DNA of 52,585 bases, taken from an uncultured Gammaproteobacteria bacterium. Its GTDB lineage: Bacteria; Patescibacteriota; Microgenomatia; Curtissbacterales; GWA2-41-24. This document shows, piece after piece, positions 19,725 through 51,390 of this stretch. Under the pieces are notes generated by a model. That model ran no database searches and was not told where the DNA came from. It worked only from the letters and a program-made list of their open reading frames with translations. The stretch covers positions 1-52,585 of the forward strand of contig CAZLVB010000002.1 in the NCBI GenBank assembly GCA_964562855.1, written 5' to 3'. The stretch's first letter is position 1. Every line of letters starts with the position of its first letter. The translations under genes were made by a program, and so were the position numbers.

Positions 19725-19767
19725 CAGTTTTTGGCTTTCGATATTTCGGAAGACAAAAAGTGTTGAG

Positions 19768-19846
19768 GGAGAGGCAAGAATCCTTCAGGGTTCGTTTATA
19801 ACGAAGTTATACTATTCCGAAGGAATACATCCCTCCCTCTCCGCCA
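19768..19846 (+). other. tRNA-Ser-like mini element (acceptor stem + interrupted T-arm + CCA)
   Basis: GGAGAGG ... CAGGGTTCG [two hairpins] ATCCCTC CCTCTCC G CCA. Its 3' 16 nt duplicate the tRNA-Ser(GGA) end. Confidence 0.6.
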
Positions 19847-19852
19847 CGTAAT

Positions 19853-20639: not shown

Positions 20640-20643
20640 GAGG

Positions 20644-20730
20644 CGGAGGAGAGAGGATTCGAACCCCTGATGACGTTTCCGCCATACTCGTTTTCGAAAC
20701 GAGCCCGTTAAACCGCTCCGGCACTCCTCC
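20644..20730 (-). tRNA. tRNA-Ser(CGA)
   Basis: Anticodon arm CTCGT-TTCGAAA-ACGAG, long variable arm, GGTTCGAATCC. Confidence 0.95.
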
Positions 20731-20735
20731 TCTTG

Positions 20736-20809
20736 TACGCCCGACAGGATTCGAACCTGTGACCTTCAGCTCCGCAAGCCGACGTTCTGTCCAACTGAAC
20801 TACGGGCGC
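20736..20809 (-). tRNA. tRNA-Arg(GCG)
   Basis: Anticodon arm TCGGC-TTGCGGA-GCTGA, T-arm ACAGGTTCGAATCCTGT. Confidence 0.92.
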
Positions 20810-20894
20810 AAAGTGACGTAATTATAACTCAGTCAGGAATGTTTTTCGAAGCTTTTGATACTTCTGGTACTTTTGGTACCTGTGGTACTTTCAT

Positions 20895-21470
20895 TCAGTC
20901 GAAGTTGATGCGTTTCTGCAGTGATTGGGCCCATTTGTCAAAAAGGGTATGGACCGGAGCCGGATGGTAATGAAGGTGTTTTTCGATAACATCGAGTAAA
21001 GTCCGCTCTGTCACATTAGATAAAAGAATAATCAGCCTTGTAGGAAAATGCAGATTGGTCTGCACCATTAAAAGCCTGTCATCGCCTCGCTTCTCAAACC
21101 AGAATGAATCAAGTTCTTCCCATAAAAAGGCCCGGCCGCCGGAAATAATGCCCATATTGGTCACTTTGTGCTCGATAACATCCGGCTGGGCCGTTGCCAG
21201 AACAAAAGCCACAAAAACCACGGCAATGATTACACCAACCAGGAAAAATTCGCCAAAAGCAATAGCCGCCAAAACAAAGATCAAGCCGTAAAGCGTCACT
21301 TTGGTAAAGTATCTTTTAGATCTGGCCTTAAAAATTCTGACCGGAGATTTCCAGGAAACTATTGCCTTTGCCTCCAGTGCCGCTACGTGCTTGGCATCCA
21401 GCTCTTCCTTTGTTAAAAGAACCCCTTTGTGGTGGTCTATGTGATGCTCGCTTTTTCGAAACGTCGGCAT
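20895..21470 (-). CDS. Two-TM protein with a PH-like C-terminal domain
   Basis: W..P.R.FK.RS, TM hairpin, then G..F.WEELDSFWF. Typical conserved CPR hypothetical. Confidence 0.7.
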   Translation of the reverse strand: MPTFRKSEHHIDHHKGVLLTKEELDAKHVAALEAKAIVSWKSPVRIFKARSKRYFTKVTLYGLIFVLAAIAFGEFFLVGVIIAVVFVAFVLATAQPDVIEHKVTNMGIISGGRAFLWEELDSFWFEKRGDDRLLMVQTNLHFPTRLIILLSNVTERTLLDVIEKHLHYHPAPVHTLFDKWAQSLQKRINFD

Positions 21471-21642
21471 TTGGGCAGAGGAATACTCTAACTACCAGTT
21501 TATCATAAAGAAACTGAGGGATCTCAGTCTTTTTCTAGAATCTCAAAATTGCAAAGCAATTTTGAAAAGGAGCAACAGACTTATTGTGAAGCATTTTTGT
21601 GAATATAAAAATACGGAATATTAAAGTCTAGTTGCGACGCGG

Positions 21643-21729
21643 CGGTGGGGGTGGGATTCGAACCCACGATGACATTGCTGCCACAATCGTTTTCAAGACG
21701 ATCCGATTCAACCACTCTCGCACCCCACC
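21643..21729 (-). tRNA. tRNA-Ser(TGA)
   Basis: Anticodon arm ATCGT-CTTGAAA-ACGAT, long variable arm, GGGTTCGAATCCC. Confidence 0.95.
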
Positions 21730-21808
21730 AGAATTAAGTCTAATTTTAACAGACTCAATGGTCATTTACCATAATTTTAGCTATAATTATTGCAGAGTGG
21801 CTTAGTAA

Positions 21809-22543
21809 ATGATAATAGGTTTTTGCAAAAATTGTAGAAGAAAATTTAGAAAGAGAGAAACTAAATATAAATTCTGCTCCTTAAAATGCGCAAACAGCTA
21901 TAACAGGAACGGTTTAAGCTTGGTCCACTTACCAAAACACAATTCTGATTTGGCTGAGTTTATAGGGGTTTGTCTCGGCGATGGCTGCACATCTAGATTT
22001 CAGGTGACAGTCTTTCTTAATTCGATAGCTGATAAAGAATACATCTTTTGCATTATCAGCTTAATTAAAAGATTGTTCCCAGGAGCAACAACCTCTGTTT
22101 TTAAAAGAAAAAACTACAATATGGTTGATATCAAGATTAATTCAGTTACAGTCTCTCAGTTTATGAAGAAAAACGGCATAGTTTCAAACGCCAAGTTTAT
22201 ACCTAACTGGATTCTTAAAAGACCAATTTATATTAAATCATGTATACGGGGCCTATTTGATACTGAAGGAAGTATATCGTTTAAACAATACGAGTCTAGA
22301 TTAGGGGTAAGTTTATATAAGCAACTTAACTTTAGGAACAATGACATTCAGTTAATGACATTTGTAAGAGACAATCTTCTGAAATTAGATTTCAAGCCTA
22401 CGGTTACATTAAAACAATCTTTATATTTGAGTACTCATGAAGGAATTAATAAATTCTCAAAATTAATTGGCTTCAGTAATCCGAAGCTAAATGCAAGGAG
22501 CAAGATCGAAACCATTGAACAGTATCACAGGTTTTTCCGTTAA
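21809..22543 (+). CDS. Free-standing double-LAGLIDADG endonuclease-like protein with N-terminal Zn finger
   Basis: LAEFIGVCLGDG and CIRGLFDTEGS motifs. N-terminal CKNC...FCSLKC. No intein or intron context visible. Confidence 0.85.
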   Translation: MIIGFCKNCRRKFRKRETKYKFCSLKCANSYNRNGLSLVHLPKHNSDLAEFIGVCLGDGCTSRFQVTVFLNSIADKEYIFCIISLIKRLFPGATTSVFKRKNYNMVDIKINSVTVSQFMKKNGIVSNAKFIPNWILKRPIYIKSCIRGLFDTEGSISFKQYESRLGVSLYKQLNFRNNDIQLMTFVRDNLLKLDFKPTVTLKQSLYLSTHEGINKFSKLIGFSNPKLNARSKIETIEQYHRFFR

Positions 22544-22550
22544 CCTTGTA

Positions 22551-22626
22551 CGGTGGGTACAGGATGTTCACTCCGTGAAGAACAGTGCCTTTCAGTTGCA
22601 CTATTTACGAACCTGTAAACTTCACC
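22551..22626 (-). other. Second tRNA-like mini element with interrupted T-arm
   Basis: GGTGAAG TTT ACAGGTTCG [two hairpins] ATCCTGT ACCCACCG, 8 nt downstream of tRNA-Ser(GCT). Confidence 0.55.
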
Positions 22627-22634
22627 TGTACTTG

Positions 22635-22721
22635 CGGAGGAGGTGGGATTCGAACCCACGTGAGCCTTACGACTCAAGAGATTAGCAATCTCCCGCAATG
22701 GACCAACTATGCGACTCCTCC
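22635..22721 (-). tRNA. tRNA-Ser(GCT)
   Basis: Anticodon arm GGAGA-TTGCTAA-TCTCT, long variable arm, GGGTTCGAATCCC. Confidence 0.95.
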
Positions 22722-35099: not shown

Positions 35100-35171
35100 C
35101 CTTCGTCCTGAGCGAAGTCGAAGGACTTCGGAAGGGCAAAGCCTGCACTCGTCCTGAGTGCTATCGAAGGA
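35100..35171. repeat. REP-like repeats (two TCGTCCTGAG..TCGAAGGA copies)
   Basis: Two similar copies just upstream of ATG 35171. Related sequences at 39608-39693. Confidence 0.65.
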
Positions 35172-37687
35172 TGGGAAAATTTGCTGCCAGTCTGCTTTTT
35201 AGTCTTCTTGTTATCTTAAGCTCTTTTCTGTTCGCTTCAGTCAACTCGTCTAGTAGCGCTTTTGCCGTAACCATTTGCCCGGATGATCCAAGCCCCGGCG
35301 GCGAACCTAATCCCCAACCTTGCAAATACGCCTGCTACACCGACAAATTAACCGATAACTACGTAACAGATGCAGACGGCAAAGCTCCAATTGAGATACC
35401 GATTACAAAAGACGATCTTGCACACGACCAGCCATTTACTGTAGACGTCAGCGAAAATTATGTCGTCGATTTTTCCAAATTACAGGGCATTTTTGGCGCT
35501 GCCAATTCCGATTTTGGCGAAGGCGGCTTTCAGGATGATTCCCACCGCCAAGAAGATATATCCGGACTTAATTCACAGGATTTTAATAAATTCCATGGTC
35601 CGGGTCAAAAGATCGCCGCCAAAACTTTGATCGACGACCTCAGGGTCAAATACGTCAAGTATATCTGGCTAAATTCGCACCTGCCGGAAGCATCGCACGA
35701 ATATACAGACTTCAATAACGAAGGCGATCCGGTAACTATCTACCAGATGATTACCGATCTGGGCTTTCCAAATCCCCCGGAGCCGCCTCCGCCGGGTGCT
35801 GACGAGGCAGCCATCAAAGCCTGGCAAGATACTTGGGGTAAATACTGGGAAAAAATCCCCACAACTTATAGTGAGTTTTATAGAGGATATTTAGTATTCA
35901 GATATGCCATGTCGGAAAAGAAATTCCTGGCGATAGAGACTGCAGGTGACTGCCCCGATGATACCGGCCGTACACCCATTGAATTTATTATGCCGGAATT
36001 CCAAAGAACAACTTCTATCTTCGACCAGCTAAACAAAATTATCGTCCCATGCGCCGCTCAATCGTTTCGCCACGGAGAAGGCCCAAACCCGGACGATCCC
36101 GACAATTGCTTCCGGCAGTATCTGGCCGCAAATTCCACCCAAAACAAAAACGCCAGTGTTCTGGGCAAATTTATTAAAGCCTGCAAAGACATTATCAACG
36201 GCGCCAGTAAAACCTTAATTAAACAACTAAGAAATGCCGGCCAAGTATCATTTAAAATCCTAAATCCCGTCAAGATTGCTTTGGCTGCAAGTCCCACGCC
36301 TGCACTAACTCCGACGCCTGCTCCCTGTTTTGTACCGCTTAAATCAGGAAAAGAAGGAACCGCGCCGTTTTGCGCCCTGCCGGAGTTCTCCGAATACACA
36401 ATGAATGGCGTGCCTCAGCGCATACCCAACTTGGGTCCAAACGATCATTGTCTGGATAAACCTACGACTAATAAACTTGATAACGACGGCAACCCAAGGG
36501 TTGTTTGTGTATTCAACATCTCTTTTTCCAAAACCTTTATTGCCAGCTCCAACATTCCTCAAGAAATCGGGAAAAGAGCTGATACGGATTTTGACAATTG
36601 TGTAGATCATGACGGGGACGGAGATTTACGGTGCACAGTCAAATTGAGAATATGGCCAGTCTACCACATCCCCTTTCTTTCGGAAATCTGGAACAACACT
36701 TTGTATTCCAATGAAGATGAAAGGGGCGTCGGCTCCCCTCAGTTAACCGGCAGACCCGGTGTTTATTCCAATTTCATTCCCAAAGCGATTTCCGAAATTC
36801 TCTTTGACAGCCCCAACGAACAAGCTCTCAGACTACTAAGAGAATGCTTACCAAACTATGATCAAGGTGATTATGGAACAATTGACCCTGCAGGATGCCA
36901 AAGACTTATTGATTTTCTCAATGCAAGTGGCCAAATAGGTTGTGTTTTAGGAACGCTAGGTGTTCCCGAACCATACAAGGAACTGGAAAAATGCATTACC
37001 AACATTCTTTCCAGAAATCTACCGGGCCAGGTTGCCTCTGATGTTCAGGGCACAAGCACTTCCAATGTCCTGGCTGCCAACTCCGGCTCCGATGCCAAAC
37101 AGCGCTTCATTGGCGCCACCGACTGTGCAAAGGTCTTTACCCGCGACATCTCGCTGAAACCCCGGGCGCTTCAAAAAGAACAAGGCATCGAAGAACAAAA
37201 ATGTAACTTACAAGCAAGGGCCCTGCCGGAAGGACCGCCGGGCCAACTTGGTCCTGCCCCGCCAAACGTTCCTCCGAATAACAATACCTGTCCAGGCACA
37301 CACGATTATGTCCTTAACAATCCTCTTGGAAATTTCGGCGACCCCGAATGCAACTTCTCGATAACTGACCTGACAGAATATCTTGAGCAGATTGACCCGA
37401 CAAATGTTGCTGATTGGCTCACAATAATACTTGACGAGAGTGGAAACAACCCAAATTCCTGGCTGACTGGTGATCCCAGCGCTCTTTACCACTCTCCAGA
37501 TCCTGCTGGCGCCTGGGGTCTCTTCCAAATGGGTAGGGGCAAAAACGGTCAATACGATCACGGAGATGTTGTTTGGCAACTGCAGGTTTATAATGCCGTA
37601 AGTTATAACAATTATTTAATCTCTATCGGTATACCATTTTGCTATTGGGAAGCAGCAATGAATCACGGGATCGCCCAAGGATGTTAA
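35171..37687 (+). CDS. Large secreted Cys-rich protein with a C-terminal lysozyme/SLT-like domain
   Basis: Signal peptide and many Cys pairs. C-terminal IILDESGNNPNS...AWGLFQM matches lytic transglycosylase ES and GLxQ motifs. Confidence 0.7.
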   Translation: MGKFAASLLFSLLVILSSFLFASVNSSSSAFAVTICPDDPSPGGEPNPQPCKYACYTDKLTDNYVTDADGKAPIEIPITKDDLAHDQPFTVDVSENYVVDFSKLQGIFGAANSDFGEGGFQDDSHRQEDISGLNSQDFNKFHGPGQKIAAKTLIDDLRVKYVKYIWLNSHLPEASHEYTDFNNEGDPVTIYQMITDLGFPNPPEPPPPGADEAAIKAWQDTWGKYWEKIPTTYSEFYRGYLVFRYAMSEKKFLAIETAGDCPDDTGRTPIEFIMPEFQRTTSIFDQLNKIIVPCAAQSFRHGEGPNPDDPDNCFRQYLAANSTQNKNASVLGKFIKACKDIINGASKTLIKQLRNAGQVSFKILNPVKIALAASPTPALTPTPAPCFVPLKSGKEGTAPFCALPEFSEYTMNGVPQRIPNLGPNDHCLDKPTTNKLDNDGNPRVVCVFNISFSKTFIASSNIPQEIGKRADTDFDNCVDHDGDGDLRCTVKLRIWPVYHIPFLSEIWNNTLYSNEDERGVGSPQLTGRPGVYSNFIPKAISEILFDSPNEQALRLLRECLPNYDQGDYGTIDPAGCQRLIDFLNASGQIGCVLGTLGVPEPYKELEKCITNILSRNLPGQVASDVQGTSTSNVLAANSGSDAKQRFIGATDCAKVFTRDISLKPRALQKEQGIEEQKCNLQARALPEGPPGQLGPAPPNVPPNNNTCPGTHDYVLNNPLGNFGDPECNFSITDLTEYLEQIDPTNVADWLTIILDESGNNPNSWLTGDPSALYHSPDPAGAWGLFQMGRGKNGQYDHGDVVWQLQVYNAVSYNNYLISIGIPFCYWEAAMNHGIAQGC

Positions 37688-38181
37688 ATCTTAACGAATT
37701 ACAACCGAAAATCAAATTGTTACTGCTTATATCACTGCCTATTCTTGTAATAATTGTAGTCCTTGCCATAACCGCTCTTAGACCAGGTAAAAAACCAGTT
37801 GGGGAACAACCGACAGCAAAACCGTCCTTGACACCGGAGAAAGTAATCCCTCCCAAAAGCGTAACTCAACAGCAACCTCAACGTGTTAAGGATATAAAAC
37901 AGGAAATTATCGCCAAGCCAATTAGAAATCAGGGGGGCGATTTAATTCTAAATGAATCATCCGCTTTAACCATAAGTTATGTCCCTAAGCTGGAAATCTT
38001 TTTTGTATCAATCAAAACAGAACCCGTGGACAACCTAAGAGAAGAAGCACACCAGTGGTTTTTAAATTTTGGACTTAAAAATGAAGATCTTTGCGGTCTG
38101 CCAGTACGACTTACACTATATTATCCAACACTTAAAAATGCCCACCCTGACTTTGGAATCTTACCGGACGGTTGTACATAA
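37681..38181 (+). CDS. Single-pass membrane hypothetical protein
   Basis: TM, Pro-rich linker, small domain with two Cys. ATG 37681 overlaps the previous stop. Confidence 0.65.
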   Translation: MLNLNELQPKIKLLLLISLPILVIIVVLAITALRPGKKPVGEQPTAKPSLTPEKVIPPKSVTQQQPQRVKDIKQEIIAKPIRNQGGDLILNESSALTISYVPKLEIFFVSIKTEPVDNLREEAHQWFLNFGLKNEDLCGLPVRLTLYYPTLKNAHPDFGILPDGCT

Positions 38182-38196
38182 CTTTCTCTCTCTTGG

Positions 38197-39351
38197 TCAC
38201 CTCCCCGATAGCTGTTTAAAATCGTAGTCTTTCTTTGTCATATGACAGTTGTCGCACTTCTGTGCACTTGCTTCCAAAGCCGCACCGCAATTTGGGCAGG
38301 GTTTTGACCCTGCACGAAACAAATCCGGTGCCAGATTAGCTAAGGTGTTAATCGGTGACTGATATAAGTCGCTCAGCACTGACAGACCGCAGGTGCCGCA
38401 AGCAAATCGCCTGATTTGGTTTCCGTACTGAGCCACAAACCCCCCGATACTTGCGTAAACTTGGCGCGCAAATTCGCGGTGTCTGTCTTGTAAAAGTTGC
38501 CCCGCATCAATTAGAGGCAATTCAACACAGCCGTCAACTACCCATTTGGCAAAAGCCATCTCTATCTTTGCCTGCCCCAGTCGCAAGGTTTTATCATCCG
38601 CACCGTTTGCAATCAAGGCGGCCAGCATCCCGGCAAGACTATTTACCCCATCTCGATATTTGGAAAAGTCTTTGCTCTTTGCTTCTAAAAATTCTGCTTC
38701 TGTAGGCATGTCACAAATGTCCTGTCTAAAGACCGAAAAGTCTGCCCCGTCAACAATAATCGGATTTCGTAAAAAATCATTCGGATGAACCTCGCTGCTA
38801 AAATAATTTCCAGCCAGAACAGAATTTGCTTCGCGCCGCTGTCCGTGAAGCGACTTTTCATTCCTCCAGGCGTACATGTCGATTTGCCTCTCTTGCGGAT
38901 CGTATTGCCCGAAAAAGTAAAAGCTGTAACTTCCGCACCCGTCCGGAGGACTTATTAAAAGTACCGCCTTTGGGCCCTTGGAATTTTTAAGCTCCCTTAT
39001 TTTCAAAAATCCCGAAAGCTCGGCCTCTTCTCTGTCACTCGATTTGCCCGCAAGCTTACGCATGTCAATTGCTGCCTGATAACTTTCAATAACATCACCA
39101 AGTGCTTTGTATTTCGGAGAGATTACGCCGTCATCAGCAAATTTGTAACTAAAATGCACTAATTTCTCCTTGGTAAACCTTTCCCAAAATAAATAGACAA
39201 GATCCCGCTGAATCATTCCTCCTACTTCATTCCTGGCTATATCGCTGGAACTCTCATGCTCAAGATGCTCAAAATGCCTTCTATAAAGTTCCGGCCTAAA
39301 ATCCAGATTTTTTTCGCAGGATAATGTGGAATTACAAGTTTCTACTCTCAT
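38197..39351 (-). CDS. Hypothetical protein with CGTCG motif and C-terminal Zn ribbon, downstream of the cobalamin riboswitch
   Basis: Long ORF with ACGTCG and CPNCG....CDNC. Start ATG 39351, since the track start lies in a repeat. Confidence 0.75.
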   Translation of the reverse strand: MRVETCNSTLSCEKNLDFRPELYRRHFEHLEHESSSDIARNEVGGMIQRDLVYLFWERFTKEKLVHFSYKFADDGVISPKYKALGDVIESYQAAIDMRKLAGKSSDREEAELSGFLKIRELKNSKGPKAVLLISPPDGCGSYSFYFFGQYDPQERQIDMYAWRNEKSLHGQRREANSVLAGNYFSSEVHPNDFLRNPIIVDGADFSVFRQDICDMPTEAEFLEAKSKDFSKYRDGVNSLAGMLAALIANGADDKTLRLGQAKIEMAFAKWVVDGCVELPLIDAGQLLQDRHREFARQVYASIGGFVAQYGNQIRRFACGTCGLSVLSDLYQSPINTLANLAPDLFRAGSKPCPNCGAALEASAQKCDNCHMTKKDYDFKQLSGR

Positions 39352-39363
39352 GCCTGCTCGGGT

Positions 39364-39424
39364 CCCTCGCATTCGCTCGGGATAAACTCAGGAAAGTTTA
39401 CCCTGAGGAGCGTAGCGACGAAGG
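39364..39424. repeat. Two-arm REP/MITE-like element
   Basis: Left arm 25/27 identical to 51503-51529. Right arm CTGAGGAG.G.AGCGACGAAG also at 51568-51595. Confidence 0.75.
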
Positions 39425-39576
39425 GCGGTCGGTCTCCTGGCTTCCCAAAAACCCAAAAGGGCTGGGTTACAGTTGCGGCACAGCTCCGGATTCACACCGG
39501 ATTTCCGTTTGAAGTATGAGCCTTCTCTCCATCCGAAGCTTTATGCGTAGGACGGAAATGACTCAAACCGCTCCTT
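39421..39576 (-). promoter_or_regulatory. Cobalamin (B12) riboswitch
   Basis: Minus strand: P1 AAGGAGCGGT/ACCGCCCTT, core AAACGGAAATCCGGTGTGAATCCGGAGCTGTGCCGCAACTGTAA, B12-box GGAAGCCAGGAGACC. Confidence 0.88.
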
Positions 39577-39740
39577 CATTGTTAACCGTCAGTTGTCAGA
39601 TGTCAATCCTTCGACGTTGCTCAGGTCTTCGACTCTGAGGAATGAGCCATTGGCTCAGACTCGAAGAGATGGCCCTGAGTTATATCGAATGGGTCAATTG
39701 TCAATTGTTATTTCAGGTGCTACTATTGAATTAGCCTGTA

Positions 39741-41303
39741 ATGATAAAAGTAGCTGCCTTGCCTGCGTTAGTCGTTAGTCGTTTTGCTTTAGTCATACTT
39801 GTCGCTTTCCTCTTTTCCCTTTTCACTTTGATTCTCCTCGCCCGCCCCGCCCACGCCACCAGTCACGAACCTAGTCCGTCACCCAGCGCTGAATGCCAAG
39901 TACCAGAGGGCGCTACAGGCCAGCAAGTAATTGACACCTTTAACAAGTGTGCAATTAAGAAAAACGTCTTTGACGACAAGGTCTTTAACATGAACCAAAT
40001 AGCGGGAACGACAGACAGTCTTTACACGATCTTAATCGGTAAATCTCTCCTTCACCCCGAAACTGACGAAGTTACCCAAGGCAAAGGTGCGGTTGCAGCA
40101 ACAGGTAAACTGGCGATGAGCCTGTTCTCTAGGCCCCCGGTTTCCGGTGTAGATTATTTCGCCTCGCAAATTCAGAAATTTAATCCTATTCAGCCAGCCT
40201 ACGCTCAAGGTCTAGGCTTCACGGCACTCACACCCGTTCAGGGATTATGGGAAAAATTCAGGAATGTTTCTTATTTGGGATTCGTCATTGTCTTTGTGAT
40301 CATCGGTTTTATGATTATGTTCCGGGCTCATATTTCCCCGCAGGCAGTGGCTACGGTGCAGGATTCTTTGCCTAGAATTGTTATCGCCTTAATTTTAGTT
40401 ACCTTCAGCTATGCTATCGCCGGTCTGATGATAGACGTAATGTTTTTATCCATTAATGTTGCTATCAAGCTACTACAGCCTGACTATATAGGAGCAGGTA
40501 AAGAAAATCTGGTATTCGAGCAAAGCATCATCCAAATAACCGTACATGCCTGGGACAACATAGTAGGCGGTGTGGCCGGTGCCCTTAATAACATTATAGA
40601 GAGCACTATCGATATTGGCCTTGGAACCATTGGCGATCTTATAGAATGGGGGCTTTCCGGAATCGGAGGACTGATTGCCGGAATTGCCATGCTCTTTATT
40701 ATGTTCAGAGTTTTTCTAATGCTTCTGATGGCATATGTGATGATTCTGATCATGACTTTAGCAGCCCCTTTTTACTTCTTGATTCAGGCTCTTCCCGGCA
40801 ACAACGGCGCCAAGGAATGGTTTAAACAAATGGCCGCAAATGTTTCCGTATTCCCAGTAGTGGCCTTAATGGTCCTGCTCGCCGGAGCACTGACTGGAAT
40901 CGGGGACCTTGGAGGAGGGGGCACAGCTAAAATACCGGATGCAGAGGTTCTCAAGTTTCCGCTTCTTGTTGGTGGTTTTGAAGGAGATAAGATTATTAAA
41001 CTTATCGGATTTGGCATTTTGTTTATGACTCCCGAGGCGGCCAAGATGATTAAAGAAGCAATCGGCGCCAAAGGTCTCGGCGGGGGAGCCGGATTGGGTG
41101 CCGGCGCAGCCGCACTTGGGTCTGGGGCTGGCGTTCTTGCTGCTGGAGGAAAACGCGTTGGTGAGAGCCGCCTTGGAAGAGCCTATTCAGACATTATGGA
41201 ACATCGAGGTCGAGAAGGGTCTCAAAGGATAATAAATAGAATTTCCGGAACCAATGCCGAGGGAGCACCAAATATACTAGCCAGAGGCAAATTGCCGAAG
41301 TAA
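39741..41303 (+). CDS. VirB6/TrbL-like polytopic membrane protein
   Basis: WEKFRNVSY, GFMIMFR, SLPRIVIALILVTFSYAIAGLMID, Gly-rich tail. T4SS-locus context. Confidence 0.7.
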   Translation: MIKVAALPALVVSRFALVILVAFLFSLFTLILLARPAHATSHEPSPSPSAECQVPEGATGQQVIDTFNKCAIKKNVFDDKVFNMNQIAGTTDSLYTILIGKSLLHPETDEVTQGKGAVAATGKLAMSLFSRPPVSGVDYFASQIQKFNPIQPAYAQGLGFTALTPVQGLWEKFRNVSYLGFVIVFVIIGFMIMFRAHISPQAVATVQDSLPRIVIALILVTFSYAIAGLMIDVMFLSINVAIKLLQPDYIGAGKENLVFEQSIIQITVHAWDNIVGGVAGALNNIIESTIDIGLGTIGDLIEWGLSGIGGLIAGIAMLFIMFRVFLMLLMAYVMILIMTLAAPFYFLIQALPGNNGAKEWFKQMAANVSVFPVVALMVLLAGALTGIGDLGGGGTAKIPDAEVLKFPLLVGGFEGDKIIKLIGFGILFMTPEAAKMIKEAIGAKGLGGGAGLGAGAAALGSGAGVLAAGGKRVGESRLGRAYSDIMEHRGREGSQRIINRISGTNAEGAPNILARGKLPK

Positions 41304-41306
41304 TTT

Positions 41307-44300
41307 TTATTTCCCTAATTCTGCAAAAGTATAGCCGAATAGTCTTTTAATAAACTCCCAGATCATCGCAATCGAAACTCCAAATGGTAAGAATTTACTT
41401 TCCCAAGCGGCAAAACGGGCAACTTCCCCATATTGCCTCGTTCTTCTAAAAACTACATTCCCTAAAAATTTTCCTTTTGCAAACCCTAATAACTCATGCT
41501 TAAAATAATTCCCCTGCTCCTTCTTAATCGCACCATTTTGCACGAGGAGGTCTACAAGACTTTCGCCAGCACCTGACTGCATATTATCAACGTCTAATAA
41601 TCTTCTCCAATGCTTATTGGCAATCTCCCAATGAATTTTAACTGCCATGTTCATCCAAGGCCAGAGTCTGACATTTCTCCCAGAGTAAAAAACAGCGTCT
41701 TTATCGTTAATTTGTAAGAACCTTTCGTTTGATGGATCACGCATGTAACCCTGAAGTTGACTCCTGTCAAAATATGCCAACGCTGCTTTTCTATCAGAAT
41801 ACAAATCGATCATTTCAAATTGACGTAATTTATGGGCGATTGTACTAAAGCGCGCTTGAGAAAAAGAAAAAAATGAGGTATCACCGCTGTCGATCATTTC
41901 AGCAATTGCTGCTGATCTCGCCCAACCAATAAACCCTTCAAAATAAGGGTCCCTGACACCGCTGTTTGGATCATTTGCGCTCTCAGTCTCAAGCGCACGG
42001 CGGTAACTTTCGTCCGGAACAAAATCAGCTTTTCTCATCATCTCTTTTGTACGTCTCTCGACTTCTTCAAGCTGTTCAGCCGTCATAAAATATTTTGCAA
42101 ACCGAACCATCGTTCTGTTTTGAGGTAAAAGATTACCGTGCTCTCCAAGAAGTTTTTTTCTGAAAATAGCATTGACCTCAGTCTCTTCATACCCCCGACC
42201 ACGCTCTTCATTGATAATAAAGTCCATAAAATGATCTATATGCCTGCTGTAAAACATCTTTGTGTGCTGGGCAAAAGCAATTTGCTGGGGAACTTGCGCT
42301 AACTTTTTGGTTTTATAATTGACACCATAAATTCGAATGATGTCAAAATCCGACCAGGCAAAGGCCCAAGCTAAATGATAGGCGTTCTTATCGACAGCTT
42401 CCAGAAAACCGAATTTATCCAACTCGTCAATTAATTCTTGAGTCCGCTGCTGGCGCAATTCCTCAATCTTGCTTTCCAATTCCTGGCCTGTATATTTTTC
42501 TCTTAACTGTTGCTCTAACATTAAAAACCGCTCATCTTTTTCAAGACGAAGTCCTCGTGTTACCAACACATGTTTAAGACGTTCTCTTAATTCAGCACGG
42601 CGTTTATCCAAATTGTCGGCACCGTCTTTGTCCTTGCCGAATGCTCCAAGAAGCGTATTAGTATCCAACCAGCTTTGGATTGCTTCTGCCATATTAGCCA
42701 CATCGTATCGCCATGCCCTGTTGATTATCCTCATCAATTGCTGTTTTTCCGAAGGCGATAAATTATCAAGATCTGCCACACTGTTAATTCTGCCAAATAG
42801 CGTTTCGTTACCTCTGGACGACAATTTTTTAACAAATTCAAATATTACGATTTTTTCATCATCCCCTGTGTTTGCATCAAGGTGCAATTCCCTTTTTGTC
42901 ATTTCTTCGACGTTGTTCATTCTCTTTCGTTCATCTTCAAGCTGACCGAAATAAATGCTCACCGCCTCATCTAACAAGTTTAGATATTCCTGATCATTTT
43001 CACTCATAAACTTTCTTAATCGGCTATCGTGTGCAAATCTTTTGGCAAAGTTGACCCAAGTCTCATCGTCAAAGAGATTTTGGAATACATTAATTAACGT
43101 ATCAGGATTCATAGTTGCCCTCTCAAGCTGTACACGAAAGGAATGAAATGCCTGGAAAGCTTTTAGTTCTTCATTCAGTTCATTTAAAATTCTGCGTCCT
43201 TCTGAATCCTCGGTTTGAACCCTTTCAATCATACGGATTGCTTTCCCGATGTTCTCTTGTAATTGTTCAGGCGTGTAATCCGTCCTCTCGATAAAGCGAT
43301 AAATATTGGTGATACGCTCTGGAACCTCCTGCCACCTTGCTGGGGGTTTTGTTAAAAGGTCAATGCTTACGCTTTCCTCGGTTCCATATATCTCTTTTGT
43401 CGCTCTCCATGCCCTAAGACCAACTACCTCCCCGCCTATGCTTCGCTCATAATCTCTGGAGACTTTATCGATAATTCCTCTTGTACGTGTCACATTCCCT
43501 TCAGAATCAGTGTAAATTCCACCAAAAACATACGCCCGAACATTCTCCGGTTTGTTCCAGCCGGCAAGAATTCCCTGAAGCTGGGTACCTAAGGCAATTT
43601 CCAAATCTTCCAGTATAATCTTTCTCATTTTGTCATCCATTCGGTCATAGACAGTTTGAAAGTCTTTGTCCAAATCCTCAAATTTGCTCTTAAAGTTTTC
43701 AATTGGCCTGGAAGTTAGAAATGTTTCCAAAATTTCGATGGCTTTTCTACCATCAGGCAGTGGAGGCTCGTAATGCTCCGAAGTATATATCGCCTCTTCA
43801 ATTGTAGTAACAAAATCATACACATTTAAAAATTGCCTTTGCTGGACCGACAGATTAAACTCGTTGATTGCCTCCTGCAACCTACCTGTCCAAGTGATCC
43901 ACTGTGGATTATCTGGTGTATTGTCCCCCGTGCGGACTAAAATCTTTAATTTTGCGATAATTTCTCTCAAAGGAAGTGTTTGAACTGCGGTTTCGGCTTC
44001 TGGTTCTTCTTCTCCTTCCATTGCGCCCGGCCCGCCTTTTTCGGTTGCCTGGGCAAATTCTTCGACCTCCAAATAATGTTCGGCCTTATCAGCAGTTAAT
44101 GTTTCCTCGTCAGTACTCTGTACTTTAGCAATTAATTTCTTAGCCAGTGCTTTTTCTACCTTTAAATGAGTCTCAGTACCCTCCATGCTCTCCTGTTCAT
44201 ACTCAAAATCTTTATCGTCTAATTTAATAGCCTTTGCGTTTCTTAAAACACTTTGTGCTTCCGCGACAATCTCTCCGTCCGTCATCTTATTGACTACTTT

Positions 44301-44624
44301 CTGGTCAAGCCCTCCAAATTCAAGGAGTAGATTTTTGAACTGAAGTAATTCCCCGGGAGAAACTACTACTTTGTGCTCATCTTGGATCGCGGCTATTATC
44401 TTTATCGCGCTTTTTGCTTTTTTGTAAGGGATTACAGGATGATCTTCTTCTTTTACCTCTAGCTTTCTAGTTTGAGACTGCTGTTTTTCTTCATTTTGCT
44501 TTCTCTCTGCTCGTTTTTGGCTGCGTTTTTCCTCTGCCTTGCTTCTGGCGCGTTTCGTCTCGCCATCACTTTGCCTTTTTTCTTTGGATTCCTCTTCTTG
44601 GCGTTGTGGCACTGCCTCCGCCAT
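41307..44624 (-). CDS. Large alpha-helical, charged hypothetical protein with a C-terminal amphipathic/hydrophobic tail
   Basis: About 1105-aa ORF. ATG 44624 is preceded by AAGGGGG. Confidence 0.8.
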   Translation of the reverse strand: MAEAVPQRQEEESKEKRQSDGETKRARSKAEEKRSQKRAERKQNEEKQQSQTRKLEVKEEDHPVIPYKKAKSAIKIIAAIQDEHKVVVSPGELLQFKNLLLEFGGLDQKVVNKMTDGEIVAEAQSVLRNAKAIKLDDKDFEYEQESMEGTETHLKVEKALAKKLIAKVQSTDEETLTADKAEHYLEVEEFAQATEKGGPGAMEGEEEPEAETAVQTLPLREIIAKLKILVRTGDNTPDNPQWITWTGRLQEAINEFNLSVQQRQFLNVYDFVTTIEEAIYTSEHYEPPLPDGRKAIEILETFLTSRPIENFKSKFEDLDKDFQTVYDRMDDKMRKIILEDLEIALGTQLQGILAGWNKPENVRAYVFGGIYTDSEGNVTRTRGIIDKVSRDYERSIGGEVVGLRAWRATKEIYGTEESVSIDLLTKPPARWQEVPERITNIYRFIERTDYTPEQLQENIGKAIRMIERVQTEDSEGRRILNELNEELKAFQAFHSFRVQLERATMNPDTLINVFQNLFDDETWVNFAKRFAHDSRLRKFMSENDQEYLNLLDEAVSIYFGQLEDERKRMNNVEEMTKRELHLDANTGDDEKIVIFEFVKKLSSRGNETLFGRINSVADLDNLSPSEKQQLMRIINRAWRYDVANMAEAIQSWLDTNTLLGAFGKDKDGADNLDKRRAELRERLKHVLVTRGLRLEKDERFLMLEQQLREKYTGQELESKIEELRQQRTQELIDELDKFGFLEAVDKNAYHLAWAFAWSDFDIIRIYGVNYKTKKLAQVPQQIAFAQHTKMFYSRHIDHFMDFIINEERGRGYEETEVNAIFRKKLLGEHGNLLPQNRTMVRFAKYFMTAEQLEEVERRTKEMMRKADFVPDESYRRALETESANDPNSGVRDPYFEGFIGWARSAAIAEMIDSGDTSFFSFSQARFSTIAHKLRQFEMIDLYSDRKAALAYFDRSQLQGYMRDPSNERFLQINDKDAVFYSGRNVRLWPWMNMAVKIHWEIANKHWRRLLDVDNMQSGAGESLVDLLVQNGAIKKEQGNYFKHELLGFAKGKFLGNVVFRRTRQYGEVARFAAWESKFLPFGVSIAMIWEFIKRLFGYTFAELGK

Positions 44625-44805
44625 CTTATTTCCCCCTTTAATTCTAGGGTAAGAGCTTTGGGTACCAATTGCAACAAATTGCTCGTTCATTGGGGGAGAG
44701 TTTAACTTAAGTATGTCTAGCTCGTCTTGATATCTAGCTAACAAAAGGCTAACAAGAGCAAATGGTGATAATTGTTGGATTGTTATATTGTTAAATTGTT
44801 CAAGA

Positions 44806-45222: not shown

Positions 45223-46560
45223 ATGATCATCTTCGAATCCACCTTTCCCGCAAATTACAGGGAGAAGGAAATAAAAGCAATATTAGATCTGTTAACCACC
45301 GGAAAATTCTGCCAAATCGTCTGTATTCCGGGCGCGGGCAAGGCTACCATCTTGCGGCTTCTTGCCCACAACCGCGATGTTTTAAAATTTCACCTCAAAG
45401 AAAAAGAGATTAATACTCGCTTTTTTTATCTAAACCTACTTGAGCTTGCTGATTTCAGCCAGGCTGATATTGCCACGTTCATACTTACTCACCTTGAGGC
45501 GAAAGTCGAGGGCTCGCCTGACCCGCTAGCTTTGACAAAAAAAGTTGCTGAATCTGTCAATAAACTGGTCACCTCCGGCCAAAGCGTCTTTCTCCTTTTC
45601 GACCATTTCGACGAATACCAGAACAAGCTGCCCAGACCCCTCTTCCAAATGTTGAGAAATCTGAGGAGTATAGCTAAATATAAGTTCGCTGTAGCCTTCG
45701 CTACAAGGCGAGACTTAGTTCAACTTGTTGATCCTGAAATACTAAAAGATTTCTACGATTTTTTTGTCGACAACTGCGTTTATCTTTCTGTGTATGACGA
45801 ATCCGCCATCAATCTTCTTTTTTTGCAGATTGAGAAAGTTTTTGCAAAGAAGCTTTCAGGCGCTGACAAACAGAAAATCACACATCTTGCAGGCGGACAT
45901 ATCAAACTCACTAAAGTCATAGCGGAATCGTTTCTTCGAGACAACATTTCTCTTGATAGTGCAAACTTACTTACTACACCGATTGTCAAAGCAACACTTT
46001 CTGAGATTTGGCTAACACTTACTGCCCAAGAACAGCAAACCACTAGATCGATTGTCCAAAATCAAAAAGTCGCAGAAGATGCCCTGGAAAATCTTCTCAA
46101 GTTCGACCTGCTCAAAAAACAATTCAACCTGCCTCGCCGGCAGGCAGGCAATACAACAATTCAACCCGCTCCGACTCGCGTCGAGCGAGGCGAGCAATAT
46201 CTCTTTACCATCCCACTTTTTAAAGAATTTGTAGCAAGTATCCCTCCAACCATAATCGAAGAAAAAATCACTTTTGATCCCAACACCAAAGACATACTTA
46301 AAGGCCAAAATCTGCTTACCGATTTGCTTTCGCCTGGCGAATACCGCCTCCTACAGTACTTCATACTCAATCAAGGCAAAGTTGTCACTCGCGACGAAAT
46401 CATCAAGGTTGTCTGGCATGAAGCCCAAATCGCCGAAGGTATCACGGACGAGGCCATTGACCAGCTAATTTACCGGCTTCGCAAAAAAACCGAGGACGAT
46501 CCGAACAACCCAAAACACACACAGACAGTCAAAGGCCAGGGCTTCCGCTTCCAACCCTGA
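45223..46560 (+). CDS. P-loop ATPase-like domain fused to a C-terminal OmpR/PhoB-type winged helix
   Basis: Walker A-like IPGAGKAT, Walker B-like LLFDHFDE, LAGGH. C-terminal LSPGEYRLL..VVTRDEII..VW..IDQLIYRLRKK..TVKGQGF. Confidence 0.82.
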   Translation: MIIFESTFPANYREKEIKAILDLLTTGKFCQIVCIPGAGKATILRLLAHNRDVLKFHLKEKEINTRFFYLNLLELADFSQADIATFILTHLEAKVEGSPDPLALTKKVAESVNKLVTSGQSVFLLFDHFDEYQNKLPRPLFQMLRNLRSIAKYKFAVAFATRRDLVQLVDPEILKDFYDFFVDNCVYLSVYDESAINLLFLQIEKVFAKKLSGADKQKITHLAGGHIKLTKVIAESFLRDNISLDSANLLTTPIVKATLSEIWLTLTAQEQQTTRSIVQNQKVAEDALENLLKFDLLKKQFNLPRRQAGNTTIQPAPTRVERGEQYLFTIPLFKEFVASIPPTIIEEKITFDPNTKDILKGQNLLTDLLSPGEYRLLQYFILNQGKVVTRDEIIKVVWHEAQIAEGITDEAIDQLIYRLRKKTEDDPNNPKHTQTVKGQGFRFQP

Positions 46561-46723: not shown

Positions 46724-48358
46724 ATGGAACAACACCCTGTCCCGCAACATATCGCCTCGTTTGAATTCAAACTCTTCGGCAACTTAACAGTCAGACAGTT
46801 TGTAACTCTGGCTATTCCCATGTCTTTTGCGGCCATATTCTTTTTTTCGAATTTAAATCCTATCATCCGATTACCCCTGGCTCTGCTTTTTGGCGGATTT
46901 GGAGTTTTCGCCGCACTCATTCCCATAGGCGGCAGGCCGTTTGACAAATGGGTAGTCGCCTTCATTAAAGCCATCCTTTCACCGACACAAAGGATTTGGG
47001 TAAAAGAAGAAAAAATACCGGAATTCTTAAGTGTGGTCACTTCGCCCTCATACGCAGCTGCAGTTCCCGAAGAAATCACTATCGCCAGCAAAGAAAGGCT
47101 CGTTTCGTATCTTTCGACACTGCCAAAAACCGTCGAAACTCCGCTTGATGTCAAGGAACAAACCGCTATCTCCAGACTCGATTTAACTTCATATGACACA
47201 ACCGGCGGCAGGTTGCCTGCCCCGATCATTTTTGCTTCGCAAACCTACCCACAAGCTCCAGTCTATCTGGGTGCATCTCTTCCTCAACAGAATACGCCTA
47301 CCGGTATTAGAGCAATGAAAGAGCCTGAAGAAGAATATCTGGGCAAAATGGAACAGGCGTTGCCCCAAGTCCATCCCCAGATTCCCAAAGAACAAGCAGC
47401 TCCTACACCAAAGGCGGCAAAAAAACCGCCCAAAAAGGTCACAATTGCCGATCACGCTAAACCGTATACGCTTGCCGGTATCGAAAAAAGGCTTGAAAGA
47501 TCGCAAGAAAAATTGCCAAGCCACACCGGTTTTGAACCGGTAGAACTTATCAAATCGCAGGTAATAGAACCGGCGGCACATTTAGCCGGAGAAAACAACT
47601 TTCTCTACGAGGTTTTCATTCCGGTCAGCCATAGAGAAACGATTAAATTCGTACCCGGAATCGGCAAAACACGTGTGCGAAAATTGCATTTTGCACCTCC
47701 TGTCAATTTCAATATCGCCAATTTACCGATTAGAGGAGAAAGGCGGTTTGAAATCTCCGAAGAATTAAAAAAACTCTATAATATCGAAGACTTGCCGATA
47801 GACAGCGAAGAAGCTCCTCCGGTCGTCTTACCAACTGAATTTGAAAAAAAACCGCAAGAGGCGACAAAGCCCTCTCAAAAACCAAAAGATAACACTGATC
47901 TTTTTAAGGTTGACGAAACGCTCCTTGCAAGCTCAGCCAAGCTTCAGGCAGCACAGGGAGTAACGCTTAAAACCGCAAAAGAAGCAACCCAAGATTCCAA
48001 AATTTCCGTAAATTATCAAAAGTCGCAGGCTGCGCTTGCCTCTGAGGCTTTACAAAAAGCCCAAATTGTCCCTTTAACCTCAAGACCGAATGTCCTCTCC
48101 GGTCTTGTCACAAGAATTGATGGCTCTCCTGTTTCCGGTGCCATTATCACAGTCCGGGATACAAACGGCATTCCGGTTAGAGCCTTAAAAACAAACAAGC
48201 TTGGCCAGTTCCTTTCGGCTACATCTCTCACAAACGACACCTACACTCTGGAGGTCGACAGTCACCAGGCGCATTTTGAACCAATTAAACTCAACCTGAC
48301 AGGCGAAGTTCTCTCACCCTTAGCCATAGAGGAAAAGAAGGGGGATGGAAATGCCTAA
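46724..48358 (+). CDS. PrgI-family protein with a C-terminal carboxypeptidase-regulatory-like Ig domain
   Basis: MEQHPVPQHIASFEFKLFGNLTVRQF, two TMs, GRPFDKW. C-terminal PVRALKTNKLGQF. Confidence 0.85.
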   Translation: MEQHPVPQHIASFEFKLFGNLTVRQFVTLAIPMSFAAIFFFSNLNPIIRLPLALLFGGFGVFAALIPIGGRPFDKWVVAFIKAILSPTQRIWVKEEKIPEFLSVVTSPSYAAAVPEEITIASKERLVSYLSTLPKTVETPLDVKEQTAISRLDLTSYDTTGGRLPAPIIFASQTYPQAPVYLGASLPQQNTPTGIRAMKEPEEEYLGKMEQALPQVHPQIPKEQAAPTPKAAKKPPKKVTIADHAKPYTLAGIEKRLERSQEKLPSHTGFEPVELIKSQVIEPAAHLAGENNFLYEVFIPVSHRETIKFVPGIGKTRVRKLHFAPPVNFNIANLPIRGERRFEISEELKKLYNIEDLPIDSEEAPPVVLPTEFEKKPQEATKPSQKPKDNTDLFKVDETLLASSAKLQAAQGVTLKTAKEATQDSKISVNYQKSQAALASEALQKAQIVPLTSRPNVLSGLVTRIDGSPVSGAIITVRDTNGIPVRALKTNKLGQFLSATSLTNDTYTLEVDSHQAHFEPIKLNLTGEVLSPLAIEEKKGDGNA

Positions 48359-49527: not shown

Positions 49528-51390
49528 ATGAGCGTCCTTGATTTACTAAAACCCAAAAAACCCCAAAATGCGCTTCCTGAAAAGGAGAAAAGATGGGCGC
49601 AAACGCTTGCCGGTGGTGTCGTTTCGGTCAAGGATATTGTCGCCCCTCCCGCGATCGAGGTCGATTTCGATTACTTAAAAGTCGGCTCAACTTTCTATAG
49701 GACTTTATTTGTGGTTGGCTATCCACGATTCGTTCAGGCCAACTGGCTTTCGCCTTTAATCAATTTTGAGCACACCTTGGAAATTGCCATGTATTGCTAC
49801 CCGGTTGAAGCCAAGGGGGTGCTTGACGATTTGAAAAGGAAAGTCACCGAAATGGAAGCCACCATCGCCACCGATATCCAGCACGGCAAAGTCCTTGATC
49901 CGGCAGTTCAGGCAGCCTTAGAGGATGCCCAGGTCCTGCAGGAAGAGCTGGTCAAGGGCGCCGAACGCTTCTTCCAGTTTGGGCTCTATGTCACAGTCCC
50001 TGCGGATTCACTTGAAGAATTAGCCTCAGTATCAAAGCAAGTGGAATCGACCCTCGGTGCTCTTTTACTTGTGCCCAAACATGCCACCCTCCAGCAGGAA
50101 GACGCCTTTAAAACTACCCTGCCCCAGGGTACCGATCACATCTACATCACCAGAAACATGGATACCACTTCCCTGGCCACTACCTTTCCTTTTATCTCCT
50201 CGACTCTTTCCAGTAATTCCGGCGTCATGTATGGCGTCAACGAACACAATGGCTCGCTGGTCATCTTTGACAGGTTCACCCAGGAAAATGCCAATGCCGT
50301 CATCTTCGCAAAGAGCGGTGCCGGCAAATCCTACATGGTTAAACTTGAAGCTTTAAGATCCCTAATGTTTGGCACGGAAATTATTGTTATCGATCCGGAG
50401 GAGGAATACAAAAATCTTTGCGAAGCCATAGGCGGCGAATACATTTCGTTCAATTTCAATTCGCCGGCCAAAATTAATCCTTTTGACCTTTCCGGCGTCT
50501 ACGAAGAAGGCGAAAACGAACTTGGCCTAAAAATTCTGTCACTTCACGGTCTTTTGCGGGTCATCATGGGCCAGTTGACGCCAACCGAAGACGCCATTTT
50601 AGATAAAGCTTTGGTTGCCACCTATAAATCCAAAGGCATTACGCCCGATCCGCAAAGTCAGAAAAACGAACCGCCTTTAATGGAAGATCTCTACAAAGTC
50701 CTTCTTGGCATGGAGGAATCGCAGGCAAAGGGCCTTGCCGACAGGATCGAAAAATTCGTCAAAGGGTCTCTAATTGGCATTTTTAACCAGCAGTCCAATA
50801 TCGACATTAAAAACACATTTACTGTCTTTTCGATCAAAGACTTGGAAGATGAACTTAGGCCCATCGCCATGTATCTAATCTTGGACTACATCTGGACACG
50901 CATTAAAAACGACATCAGAAAACGCCTCCTGATTGTTGACGAAGCTTGGTACCTGATGCAGTACCCGGACAGTGCCACTTTTATGTATTCCATTGCCAAA
51001 CGAGCTCGAAAATACTATCTTGGGCTAACAACCATAACCCAGGACGTACAGGATTTCCTAAATACGGATTATGGTAAAGCGATTGTTACCAACTCCTCGA
51101 TTCAGATTCTTCTGAAACAATCGCCGGCAGCCATTGACCAGGTTTCGGAAGTCTTTTATCTTTCCGAAGGCGAAAAGCACCTGCTTCTTTCTGCAGACGT
51201 CGGTGAGGGCATCTTTTTTGCCGGCCCAAACCATGTAGCCATTCGCGTTGTTGCCTCGGAAGACGAACACTATTTGGTTACCACCAACCCTGAAGAACTT
51301 TTGGAAATGCAGAAAAAGAGTGCCGCCGTTCTTAAGGAGTTTGAAGAACAGGCGCCTAAAGACTCCGCTGAATCTCCCCAATCCGTCTAG
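49528..51390 (+). CDS. VirB4-like T4SS ATPase
   Basis: Walker A AKSGAGKS, IVIDPEEEY, INPFD, Walker B LLIVDEAW, KRARKYYLG...ITQ. Confidence 0.92.
   Translation: MSVLDLLKPKKPQNALPEKEKRWAQTLAGGVVSVKDIVAPPAIEVDFDYLKVGSTFYRTLFVVGYPRFVQANWLSPLINFEHTLEIAMYCYPVEAKGVLDDLKRKVTEMEATIATDIQHGKVLDPAVQAALEDAQVLQEELVKGAERFFQFGLYVTVPADSLEELASVSKQVESTLGALLLVPKHATLQQEDAFKTTLPQGTDHIYITRNMDTTSLATTFPFISSTLSSNSGVMYGVNEHNGSLVIFDRFTQENANAVIFAKSGAGKSYMVKLEALRSLMFGTEIIVIDPEEEYKNLCEAIGGEYISFNFNSPAKINPFDLSGVYEEGENELGLKILSLHGLLRVIMGQLTPTEDAILDKALVATYKSKGITPDPQSQKNEPPLMEDLYKVLLGMEESQAKGLADRIEKFVKGSLIGIFNQQSNIDIKNTFTVFSIKDLEDELRPIAMYLILDYIWTRIKNDIRKRLLIVDEAWYLMQYPDSATFMYSIAKRARKYYLGLTTITQDVQDFLNTDYGKAIVTNSSIQILLKQSPAAIDQVSEVFYLSEGEKHLLLSADVGEGIFFAGPNHVAIRVVASEDEHYLVTTNPEELLEMQKKSAAVLKEFEEQAPKDSAESPQSV

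Follow-up and report, generated by a model that had tools for sequence, protein, structure and literature searches.

The subject of this analysis is a cassette composed of a cobalamin riboswitch and one protein-coding gene, both located on the minus strand of a 52,585-nucleotide stretch of DNA (contig CAZLVB010000002.1 of the GenBank assembly GCA_964562855.1; this whole stretch is called the window below). The organism is a small-genome groundwater bacterium (840-kb genome), and in the window the cassette lies within a locus resembling that of a type IV secretion system (T4SS). The cmscan search of the whole window yielded a match to RF00174 with 56.3 bits (gathering score 31.5; E 2.2e-11), in which the aptamer covered the model fully (positions 1-189), its P6 extension being short, i.e., 13 nt versus 59 in the model. 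RF01689, the model of adenosylcobalamin (AdoCbl)-II riboswitches, gave 25.5 bits on the window, which is under its gathering score of 36.5, a value that many relatives pass. Within the whole genome (839,781 bases, 94.9% complete) this aptamer is the sole RF00174 match, and its core CTGTGCCGCAACTGT (39483-39469, minus strand), taken as a 15-nt degenerate motif, was found a single time in the 839,781 bases, with both strands included. Judged by the covariance model, the RNA is a bona fide cobalamin riboswitch, which bears out the original prediction (a note made from the sequence of the window), where it was described as a clear B12 aptamer.

The longest open reading frame (ORF) behind the aptamer (38197-39372, minus strand) encodes 391 amino acids (aa), while its second ATG, at 39351, gives a protein of 384 aa. 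The latter is most likely the true start, because MRVETC is the N-terminus of the copy in the database as well as of the nearest relative (74% identity) and because the relatives begin with M-x-V/I-E-T right behind the same leader element, which abuts this ATG. The 3' end of the aptamer is separated from this start codon on the same strand by 58 nt, which hold the expression platform; the original prediction was thus correct as to the upstream position and the 384-aa product, and its distance of about 70 nt has to be shortened. A candidate promoter is found approximately 30 nt upstream of the 5' end of the aptamer (five promoter-like sites in the region versus 2.4 expected from shuffles). The next gene downstream is a convergent plus-strand ORF (37639-38181), so the family gene is monocistronic and the riboswitch controls one gene only. 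This agrees with the earlier description of a stand-alone ORF inside a T4SS locus, as genes for pilins, a PrgI-family protein and a TraG/VirB4-like ATPase are placed around it (Table 1).

An exhaustive profile search retrieved 269 representative relatives at E<=1e-3, including 101 at E<=1e-10, nearly all of 340-440 aa. A word-based search found seven relatives only, and a single-protein query of the genome contigs recovered none, while profile queries succeeded. On the grounds of this conservation, the ORF is the founder of an unnamed, real and conserved protein family. None of eight looked-up members carries a name in its source, and the best ESM Atlas score (0.76) was to a 40-aa hypothetical protein and was uninformative. 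Scans of the ORF and eight members with Pfam and NCBIfam brought up zinc-ribbon models alone, all of them sub-threshold (PF13248, PF13240, and PF12773, with 17-22 bits versus cutoffs of 25-27), and no extra Pfam domain was present in 13 longer members (423-509 aa). In the same two libraries, the ORF matched neither the B12 transport families (BtuB, BtuF/Peripla_BP_2, BtuC/FecCD, DUF4430, DUF6580) nor the B12-independent isozymes (MetE, NrdD, NrdAB/EF), in line with the lack of resemblance to BtuB/BtuF, MetE and Nrd proteins noticed before. In the libraries and literature searched, the family appears to be undescribed, and in the literature searched there was nothing on cobalamin riboswitches in bacteria of the Candidate Phyla Radiation (CPR) either.

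The cysteine motifs noticed at the outset are present in the 384-aa protein, i.e., CGTCG (C318-G322), CPNC (352-355) and CDNC (366-369). In an alignment of 95 members, R107, P197, C321, C352 and C366 are invariant, and at least 90% conservation was observed for E57, E108, A110, E111, S134, P135, P136, Y142, G148, R163, E264, G319, C355 and C369. The four cysteines of the C-terminal knuckle are retained in 95/95 (C352), 95/95 (C366), 92/95 (C355) and 93/95 (C369) of the sequences. The conserved polar residues of the family would together make an enzyme-like constellation. A further cysteine occurs among the last four residues of 67 members and is absent from the window's own subclade. Not one of the 95 members has any 19-aa window reaching a Kyte-Doolittle value of 1.6, nor does the N-terminus look like a signal, so the protein should be soluble, and its location is presumably cytoplasmic.

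Structure prediction, which had been proposed as a check, gave an AlphaFold2 model from the family alignment with a predicted local distance difference test (pLDDT) value of 90.4 and a predicted template modelling (pTM) score of 0.82. In the model, a sheet of five strands (residues ~64-164) accompanies a helical bundle and the C-terminal knuckle. A Foldseek search against PDB gave no match at E<=0.001 (best E 0.065), and the best Z of an exhaustive VIA-align pass was 5.3, which is below the background stated for that tool. Residues ~64-168, i.e., the sheet only, could be aligned with the PAS/LOV domains 3cax, 3fc7, 3mxq and 6pps at Z 3.8-4.6, again below the tool background, and the profile of the 95 members found among PDB sequences zinc-ribbon/rubredoxin knuckles alone, with E of at least 0.003. 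By whole-model searches, in which the C-terminal 60 residues were barely covered, the predicted fold seems to be one without a recognisable solved relative.

The direction of the switch can be approached through the leaders of the relatives (loci, genomes, contigs and lineages are cited below by our working numbers, with the letters L, G, C and f, respectively). There, the element CCCGAGCAGG also follows the aptamer, and the usual order is the aptamer, CCCGAGCAGG, a hairpin with the 5' strand CCTTCTCGGG and the 3' strand GAGAAGG, which represents the Shine-Dalgarno (SD) sequence, then 5-7 T and the start codon. The sequence of CCCGAGCAGG complements the hairpin's 5' strand. In 16 of the 20 loci examined, a hairpin of -8 kcal/mol or stronger precedes the T-run, and the competing duplexes of element and hairpin reach -9 to -20 kcal/mol; several terminator-less loci have the SD sequence within CCCGAGCAGG itself. 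An antiterminator formed by an aptamer-proximal element is the standard design of OFF switches, e.g., the guanine xpt switch, and the layout of the relatives' leaders is built like this type. In the window leader, no terminator-like site or U-run was found on the minus strand. We infer for it, by analogy with the relatives, the OFF direction, and its control would be translational repression. A search of sequencing runs brought up four DNA runs, from one groundwater study, and no RNA run.

The genome itself depends on B12. Its sole ribonucleotide reductase (RNR) large subunit is NrdJ (TIGR02504, 652.9 bits versus a cutoff of 399.95), whose gene adjoins that of NrdR; the search for nrdJ advised in the original prediction thus had a positive outcome. 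By profile search, no NrdD, NrdB or B12-binding domain was found in the genome, and with NrdJ as the only RNR, the synthesis of deoxyribonucleotides requires AdoCbl. A PduO-type adenosyltransferase gene is located ~1.3 kb from nrdJ. Of the importer families, BtuF, FecCD, DUF4430 and DUF6580 were not found in the genome, the absence of DUF6580 being weak, since the control search for it matched nothing in any control genome. To our knowledge, small-genome CPR-type bacteria cannot make B12. As far as gene content can tell, this organism should be able to adenosylate cobalamin, shows no recognisable importer, and has the family gene as its single riboswitch target. The NrdJ of this genome (L002, G000:C5:27453-32120) has 957 aa, the TIGR02504 match extends over residues 43-690, and a C-terminal extension of ~270 residues follows.

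The distribution of the family was determined in a phylum sample of 401 genomes and in a class sample of 301 genomes. In the former, six genomes were positive, all of the window's class, and in the latter 58 were at E<=1e-8, 39 of them at E<=1e-20, with a concentration in a few lineages (f1, 13/16; f4, 13/15; f7, 9/14). For the survey of gene contexts, the 29 best non-self loci were used. In 21 of these, Rfam models detected a riboswitch of the cobalamin clan ahead of the family gene and on its strand, at or above the gathering score in 17, and the relatives' riboswitches score best with RF01689. Two of the eight remaining loci are cut by contig ends, and inspection of the other six revealed a divergent riboswitch with the same core, the same CCCGAGCAGG and the same terminator; five of the six have the strict core, the one that is unique in the genome of the window. 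The sequences thus present the riboswitch as a near-constant companion of the family, whatever the gene context. It had been asked whether homologues also carry it, which is the case in 21 loci by Rfam and in six more by motif, and the relatives do not show the riboswitch to be left over from a canonical gene since deleted, a case considered at the start.

The co-directional order nrdJ - pduO - family gene was observed in 15 of the 29 loci, and these locus counts are not independent, as synteny is shared by descent among related genomes. The riboswitch precedes pduO in seven loci (L025, L026, L031, L032, L033, L045, and L047) and is placed between pduO and the family gene in six (L019, L024, L028, L030, L042, and L048), while two motif-only riboswitches of this group are situated between pduO and the family gene (L021) and ahead of pduO (L027). 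In several loci (L025, L026, L027 and L045) the pduO ORF overlaps that of the family or almost touches it, which suggests translational coupling. The arrangement nrdJ - pduO - [riboswitch] - family gene may be the ancestral, or at least the commonest, layout. The new B12-linked function envisaged in the original prediction gains from this survey, in which an unnamed family has a riboswitch at essentially every examinable locus and follows nrdJ-pduO in half of them. At L044 (G530), Fur-family and ZnuA genes come next on the strand of the family gene, which faces one for a DsbA-like thioredoxin; this is a possible hint at a link to metal or thiol metabolism.

NrdJ is encoded by 265 of the 301 class genomes and does not discriminate between family-positive (55/58) and family-negative (210/243) genomes (counted by eye; the tally takes in G451, a genome flagged as unpublished on which no claim rests). 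PduO was found in 205 of the 301, namely in 48/58 family-positive versus 157/243 family-negative genomes (cross-tabulated by eye). NrdD was present in 20 of 131 sampled genomes, none of which was family-positive, and was absent from the family-rich lineages as sampled (f1, 0/5; f4, 0/3; f7, 0/5; f8, 0/6); organisms carrying the family are therefore wholly B12-dependent for deoxyribonucleoside triphosphates (dNTPs). As related genomes have these traits in common by descent, the co-occurrence counts are given without statistics.

Cobalamin riboswitches of the class also control other genes; RF01689 matches 65 of 141 class genomes. In L052 (G441:C9) the riboswitch is directly ahead of nrdD with an ATP-cone, the classic layout of a B12-independent isozyme. 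Pairs of DUF4430 and DUF6580 genes stand behind it in L057 and L066; in L072 and L076, the sequence fetched contains only DUF4430. DUF4430 we take to be the transcobalamin-like C-terminal domain, and the pairs would then be capture/uptake systems. In L074 and L075 (G260 and G509), the riboswitch controls a protein of ~205-219 aa without family, behind which comes an alpha/alpha-toroid protein whose matches are squalene-hopene-cyclase-like, an arrangement that may be a transcobalamin-like binder; together with the DUF4430+DUF6580 proteins, the alpha/alpha-toroid ones presumably resemble the two domains of transcobalamin. L057 (G461:C4:184472-187551) has two tandem cobalamin riboswitches after pduO, the first leading to DUF4430+DUF6580 and the second to an unknown ORF of >490 aa. 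In other lineages, the riboswitch slot after pduO is occupied by heterogeneous ORFs of 440-508 aa with 10-18% mutual identity, and some slot ORFs match the hidden Markov model of the family (L065, 2.5e-24; L078, 2.6e-14; L061, 4.8e-5; L059, 0.004). The 440-508-aa ORFs were kept apart from the family and not merged with it. From this survey emerges a preliminary outline of the class's B12 regulon, which takes in nrdD, DUF4430/DUF6580, alpha/alpha-toroid proteins, pduO, the family and further unknown ORFs.

As regards the T4SS-like surroundings, seven loci of lineage f1, to which the window belongs, share its neighbour encoding a 520-aa membrane protein (no Pfam family; VirB6-like is a working label only), and in lineage f8 the family gene has a PrgI-family gene as its neighbour. 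Adjacency of the cassette to T4SS-like genes is confined to these two lineages, and the loci neighbouring nrdJ-pduO yielded no homologue of the T4SS-like genes seen in the window. In G166 (L005/L022), the cassette is flanked by the same two genes as in the window (37639-41303) in inverted orientation, so it is an autonomous unit that was inverted or reinserted whole. L034 and L043 have homologues of the 838-aa window protein in the vicinity of the family gene, and L038 has one more PF05635 gene there. Two identical scores among the long-arm tRNAs of the window suggest duplication.

Table 1. Features of the window, with the riboswitch cassette listed first (coordinates refer to the forward strand).
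Feature	Position	Strand	Remarks
Sigma-70-like promoter candidate, TTGACA-17 nt-AACAAT	39578..39606	-	Consensus match only, 10/12 positions
Cobalamin riboswitch aptamer, RF00174, clan CL00101	39410..39548	-	56.3 bits, unique in genome
Expression platform	39352..39409	-	12-bp hairpin 39407-39376, then CCCGAGCAGG 39362-39353 abutting the start codon
384-aa protein of the unnamed family, predicted soluble	38197..39351	-	Modelled helical bundle and PAS-like beta-sheet core; Cys321 loop G-S/T-C-G; C-terminal Cys4 knuckle
Six consecutive paralogous T4SS-pilin genes, PF18895	31957-34964	+	Pfam; the first is 363 aa with the pilin domain C-terminal only
PrgI-family gene	46724-48358		Pfam scan of the window
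TraG/VirB4-like ATPase	49528-51390		Pfam scan of the window
ORF of 838 aa, Cys-rich, signal-like N-terminus	35171-37687	+	No Pfam/NCBIfam family
ORF of 1145 aa, Glu/Lys-rich	41307-44744	-	No Pfam/NCBIfam family
AAA/NACHT-like ATPase fused to a Trans_reg_C (OmpR-type) DNA-binding domain	45223-46560	+	Inside the T4SS-like locus
23S rRNA-intervening sequence protein genes, PF05635	29844-30212; 44788-45186	-; +	Flank the T4SS-like region
tmRNA gene, RF00023	25266-25694	+	100.4 bits; long insertions relative to the model
tRNA gene cluster	19638-22721		Includes four 87-nt long-arm tRNAs
Long-arm tRNAs	19638-19724; 20644-20730; 21643-21729; 22635-22721	+; -; -; -	

With a probability of roughly 0.5, we consider the family protein to be a soluble factor of B12 salvage or B12 processing, which is made at low B12 and works with PduO to supply NrdJ. 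When cobalamin is scarce, the OFF-type riboswitch would release expression of the single family gene. Scavenged cobalamin would be converted to AdoCbl by the PduO-type adenosyltransferase and pass to NrdJ, and the family protein may handle or process the incoming corrinoid together with PduO or just ahead of it. Candidate activities are removal or exchange of the upper ligand, reduction of cobalt, or holding and handing over of the cofactor, and this activity could reside in the invariant Cys321 and in the Cys4 metal knuckle. A biochemical role in corrinoid handling is what we infer from the regulation and gene order. The family probably belongs to an NrdJ-centred B12 salvage module of one CPR-type class. 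Most members of this class depend on NrdJ for all DNA synthesis (265/301). A family that is near-always riboswitch-controlled, and often forms one operon with the gene of the adenosyltransferase, makes a concrete candidate, open to testing, for a missing step of B12 uptake or processing.

Several observations weigh against this proposal. The biochemical function is unreadable from the sequence or fold of the family, which has no Pfam/NCBIfam family and no structural match. The counted loci share descent and do not stand for independent events, the 58 positives include weak partial matches (only 39 are at the stricter threshold), and most NrdJ users do without the family. Ten of the 58 family-positive genomes had no PduO found, and lineage f8 has the riboswitch with the family gene and PduO in 0/19 genomes, by which strict dependence of the family on PduO is ruled out; by its distribution, the family would be an accessory that occurs preferentially, though not strictly, along with PduO. 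The window leader is atypical in having no terminator, its OFF direction being carried over from the relatives, and the logic of expression at low B12 is equally compatible with a B12-independent back-up. A complex prediction for the family protein and the PduO of this genome (both as alignments) scored 0.00 and gave no answer, neither for nor against.

Such a back-up or sparing factor would keep dNTP synthesis going without AdoCbl, e.g., by activating a cofactor-less NrdJ or substituting for it. Riboswitch-controlled nrdD, nrdAB and metE serve as B12-independent isozymes in other bacteria; the family gene is regulated like them and has an nrdD behind a cobalamin riboswitch (L052) as a counterpart in its own class, none of the NrdD-positive genomes carries the family while family-rich lineages lack NrdD, the gene adjoins nrdJ in 15/29 loci, and the terminal cysteine of 67/95 members recalls the Cys-rich end of the neighbouring NrdJ. 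The explanation is nevertheless an unlikely one, as a 384-aa protein without RNR-like fold or motif cannot itself be an RNR, co-transcription with pduO behind one switch in seven loci is a better fit to making AdoCbl, the terminal cysteine is absent in the window's subclade, and no precedent of a protein activator of class II RNR was found, no dedicated search having been made. A narrower form, in which the family protein as a partner of NrdJ activates or rescues it without AdoCbl and thereby sustains the supply of DNA precursors, is very improbable; it is put forward because the gene would be derepressed at low B12 like nrdD in a sister lineage and adjoins nrdJ, and because the family is found only in genomes showing no B12-independent RNR, most members having an NrdJ-like tail. 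If true, this would be a new way to run a class II RNR. Acquisition of B12 is a rather unlikely role as well, either as a cytoplasmic high-affinity trap or importer partner or, in a bolder form, as a protein exported perhaps by the T4SS-like machinery. Cobalamin riboswitches most often govern genes of transport and capture, the class has DUF4430+DUF6580 and alpha/alpha-toroid targets, the cassette adjoins T4SS-like genes in f1 and f8, and the genome has no recognisable importer, with the family gene as its only riboswitch target. However, no signal peptide or membrane segment occurs in any of the 95 members, the invariant charged residues and cysteine look more active-site-like than a simple binding pocket would, the T4SS adjacency of two lineages may be inherited synteny, and where T4SS-like genes were not detected the family sits among cytoplasmic enzymes.

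The C-terminal zinc ribbon and weak structural rows to TetR-like and sigma-factor helical bundles (Z ~4) would suit a regulator or nucleic-acid-binding protein whose link to B12 is regulatory only. Those Z values are, however, under the tool's background for helical proteins, no DNA-binding domain was matched, and the recurrent association with pduO and nrdJ in operons speaks for metabolism, which makes a regulator quite improbable. Finally, the original prediction had offered B12 as a cue for host contact, i.e., a riboswitch that ties the T4SS-like locus to B12 availability, which the position of the cassette inside this locus and the recurrent membrane-protein neighbour in seven f1 loci could suggest. 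We regard this as extremely improbable, as the switch has only one gene behind it, none of the T4SS-like ones, and the downstream ORF (37639-38181, plus strand) is convergent, the inverted cassette of G166 behaves as an autonomous unit, and elsewhere the cassette is away from detectable T4SS-like genes, being linked to nrdJ-pduO in 15/29 loci instead.

The proposed B12-salvage or B12-processing factor may be compared with known systems. The cobalamin riboswitch regulons (clan CL00101) comprise btuB, btuFCD, cob/cbi genes, metE and nrdDG/nrdAB. The family shares with them the RF00174 aptamer, the OFF-type antiterminator/terminator-SD leader in the relatives and a B12-linked target, and differs in a target that belongs to no known target family, in the short P6 extension and in the window leader without terminator. 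The eukaryotic CblC/MMACHC is a cytoplasmic cobalamin-processing enzyme acting upstream of the PduO-type adenosyltransferase MMAB. From gene order, the family protein would take the same place in the pathway, as a soluble factor before PduO-type adenosylation, whereas it has no Pfam similarity and no recognised flavin- or glutathione-binding features; CblC was not among the fold-search rows for the family model, and by the rule of the tool, absence there does not exclude a family. Cobalamin reductases serving adenosyltransferases include PduS, CobR and flavodoxin systems. A supply of reduced cobalamin to PduO is likewise conceivable for the family protein, whose CPxCG knuckle is rubredoxin-like (weak matches, E 0.09-0.7), but no flavin or Fe-S domain was matched in it. 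With the C-terminal tail of the neighbouring NrdJ, a Cys-rich zinc finger of class II RNRs, most members share the pattern CxxC-(8-12)-CxxC followed by a C-terminal Cys, which is a short motif likeness only, and the window protein is without the terminal Cys.

BtuM is reported to be a cysteine-ligating B12 transporter and decyanase, in which a conserved cysteine serves as a cobalt ligand and mediates removal of the upper ligand (PMC6072759). It sets a precedent for Cys-Co chemistry, to which the invariant Cys321 of the family may correspond. BtuM is an integral membrane protein, whereas hydrophobic segments are absent from the family, and homology to BtuM could not be detected. Measured against all these systems, the riboswitch and the regulatory principle appear ordinary, while the protein component would be new to cobalamin regulons, and with its confidently predicted fold, for which no solved relative is recognised, it could establish a new type of protein for corrinoid handling.

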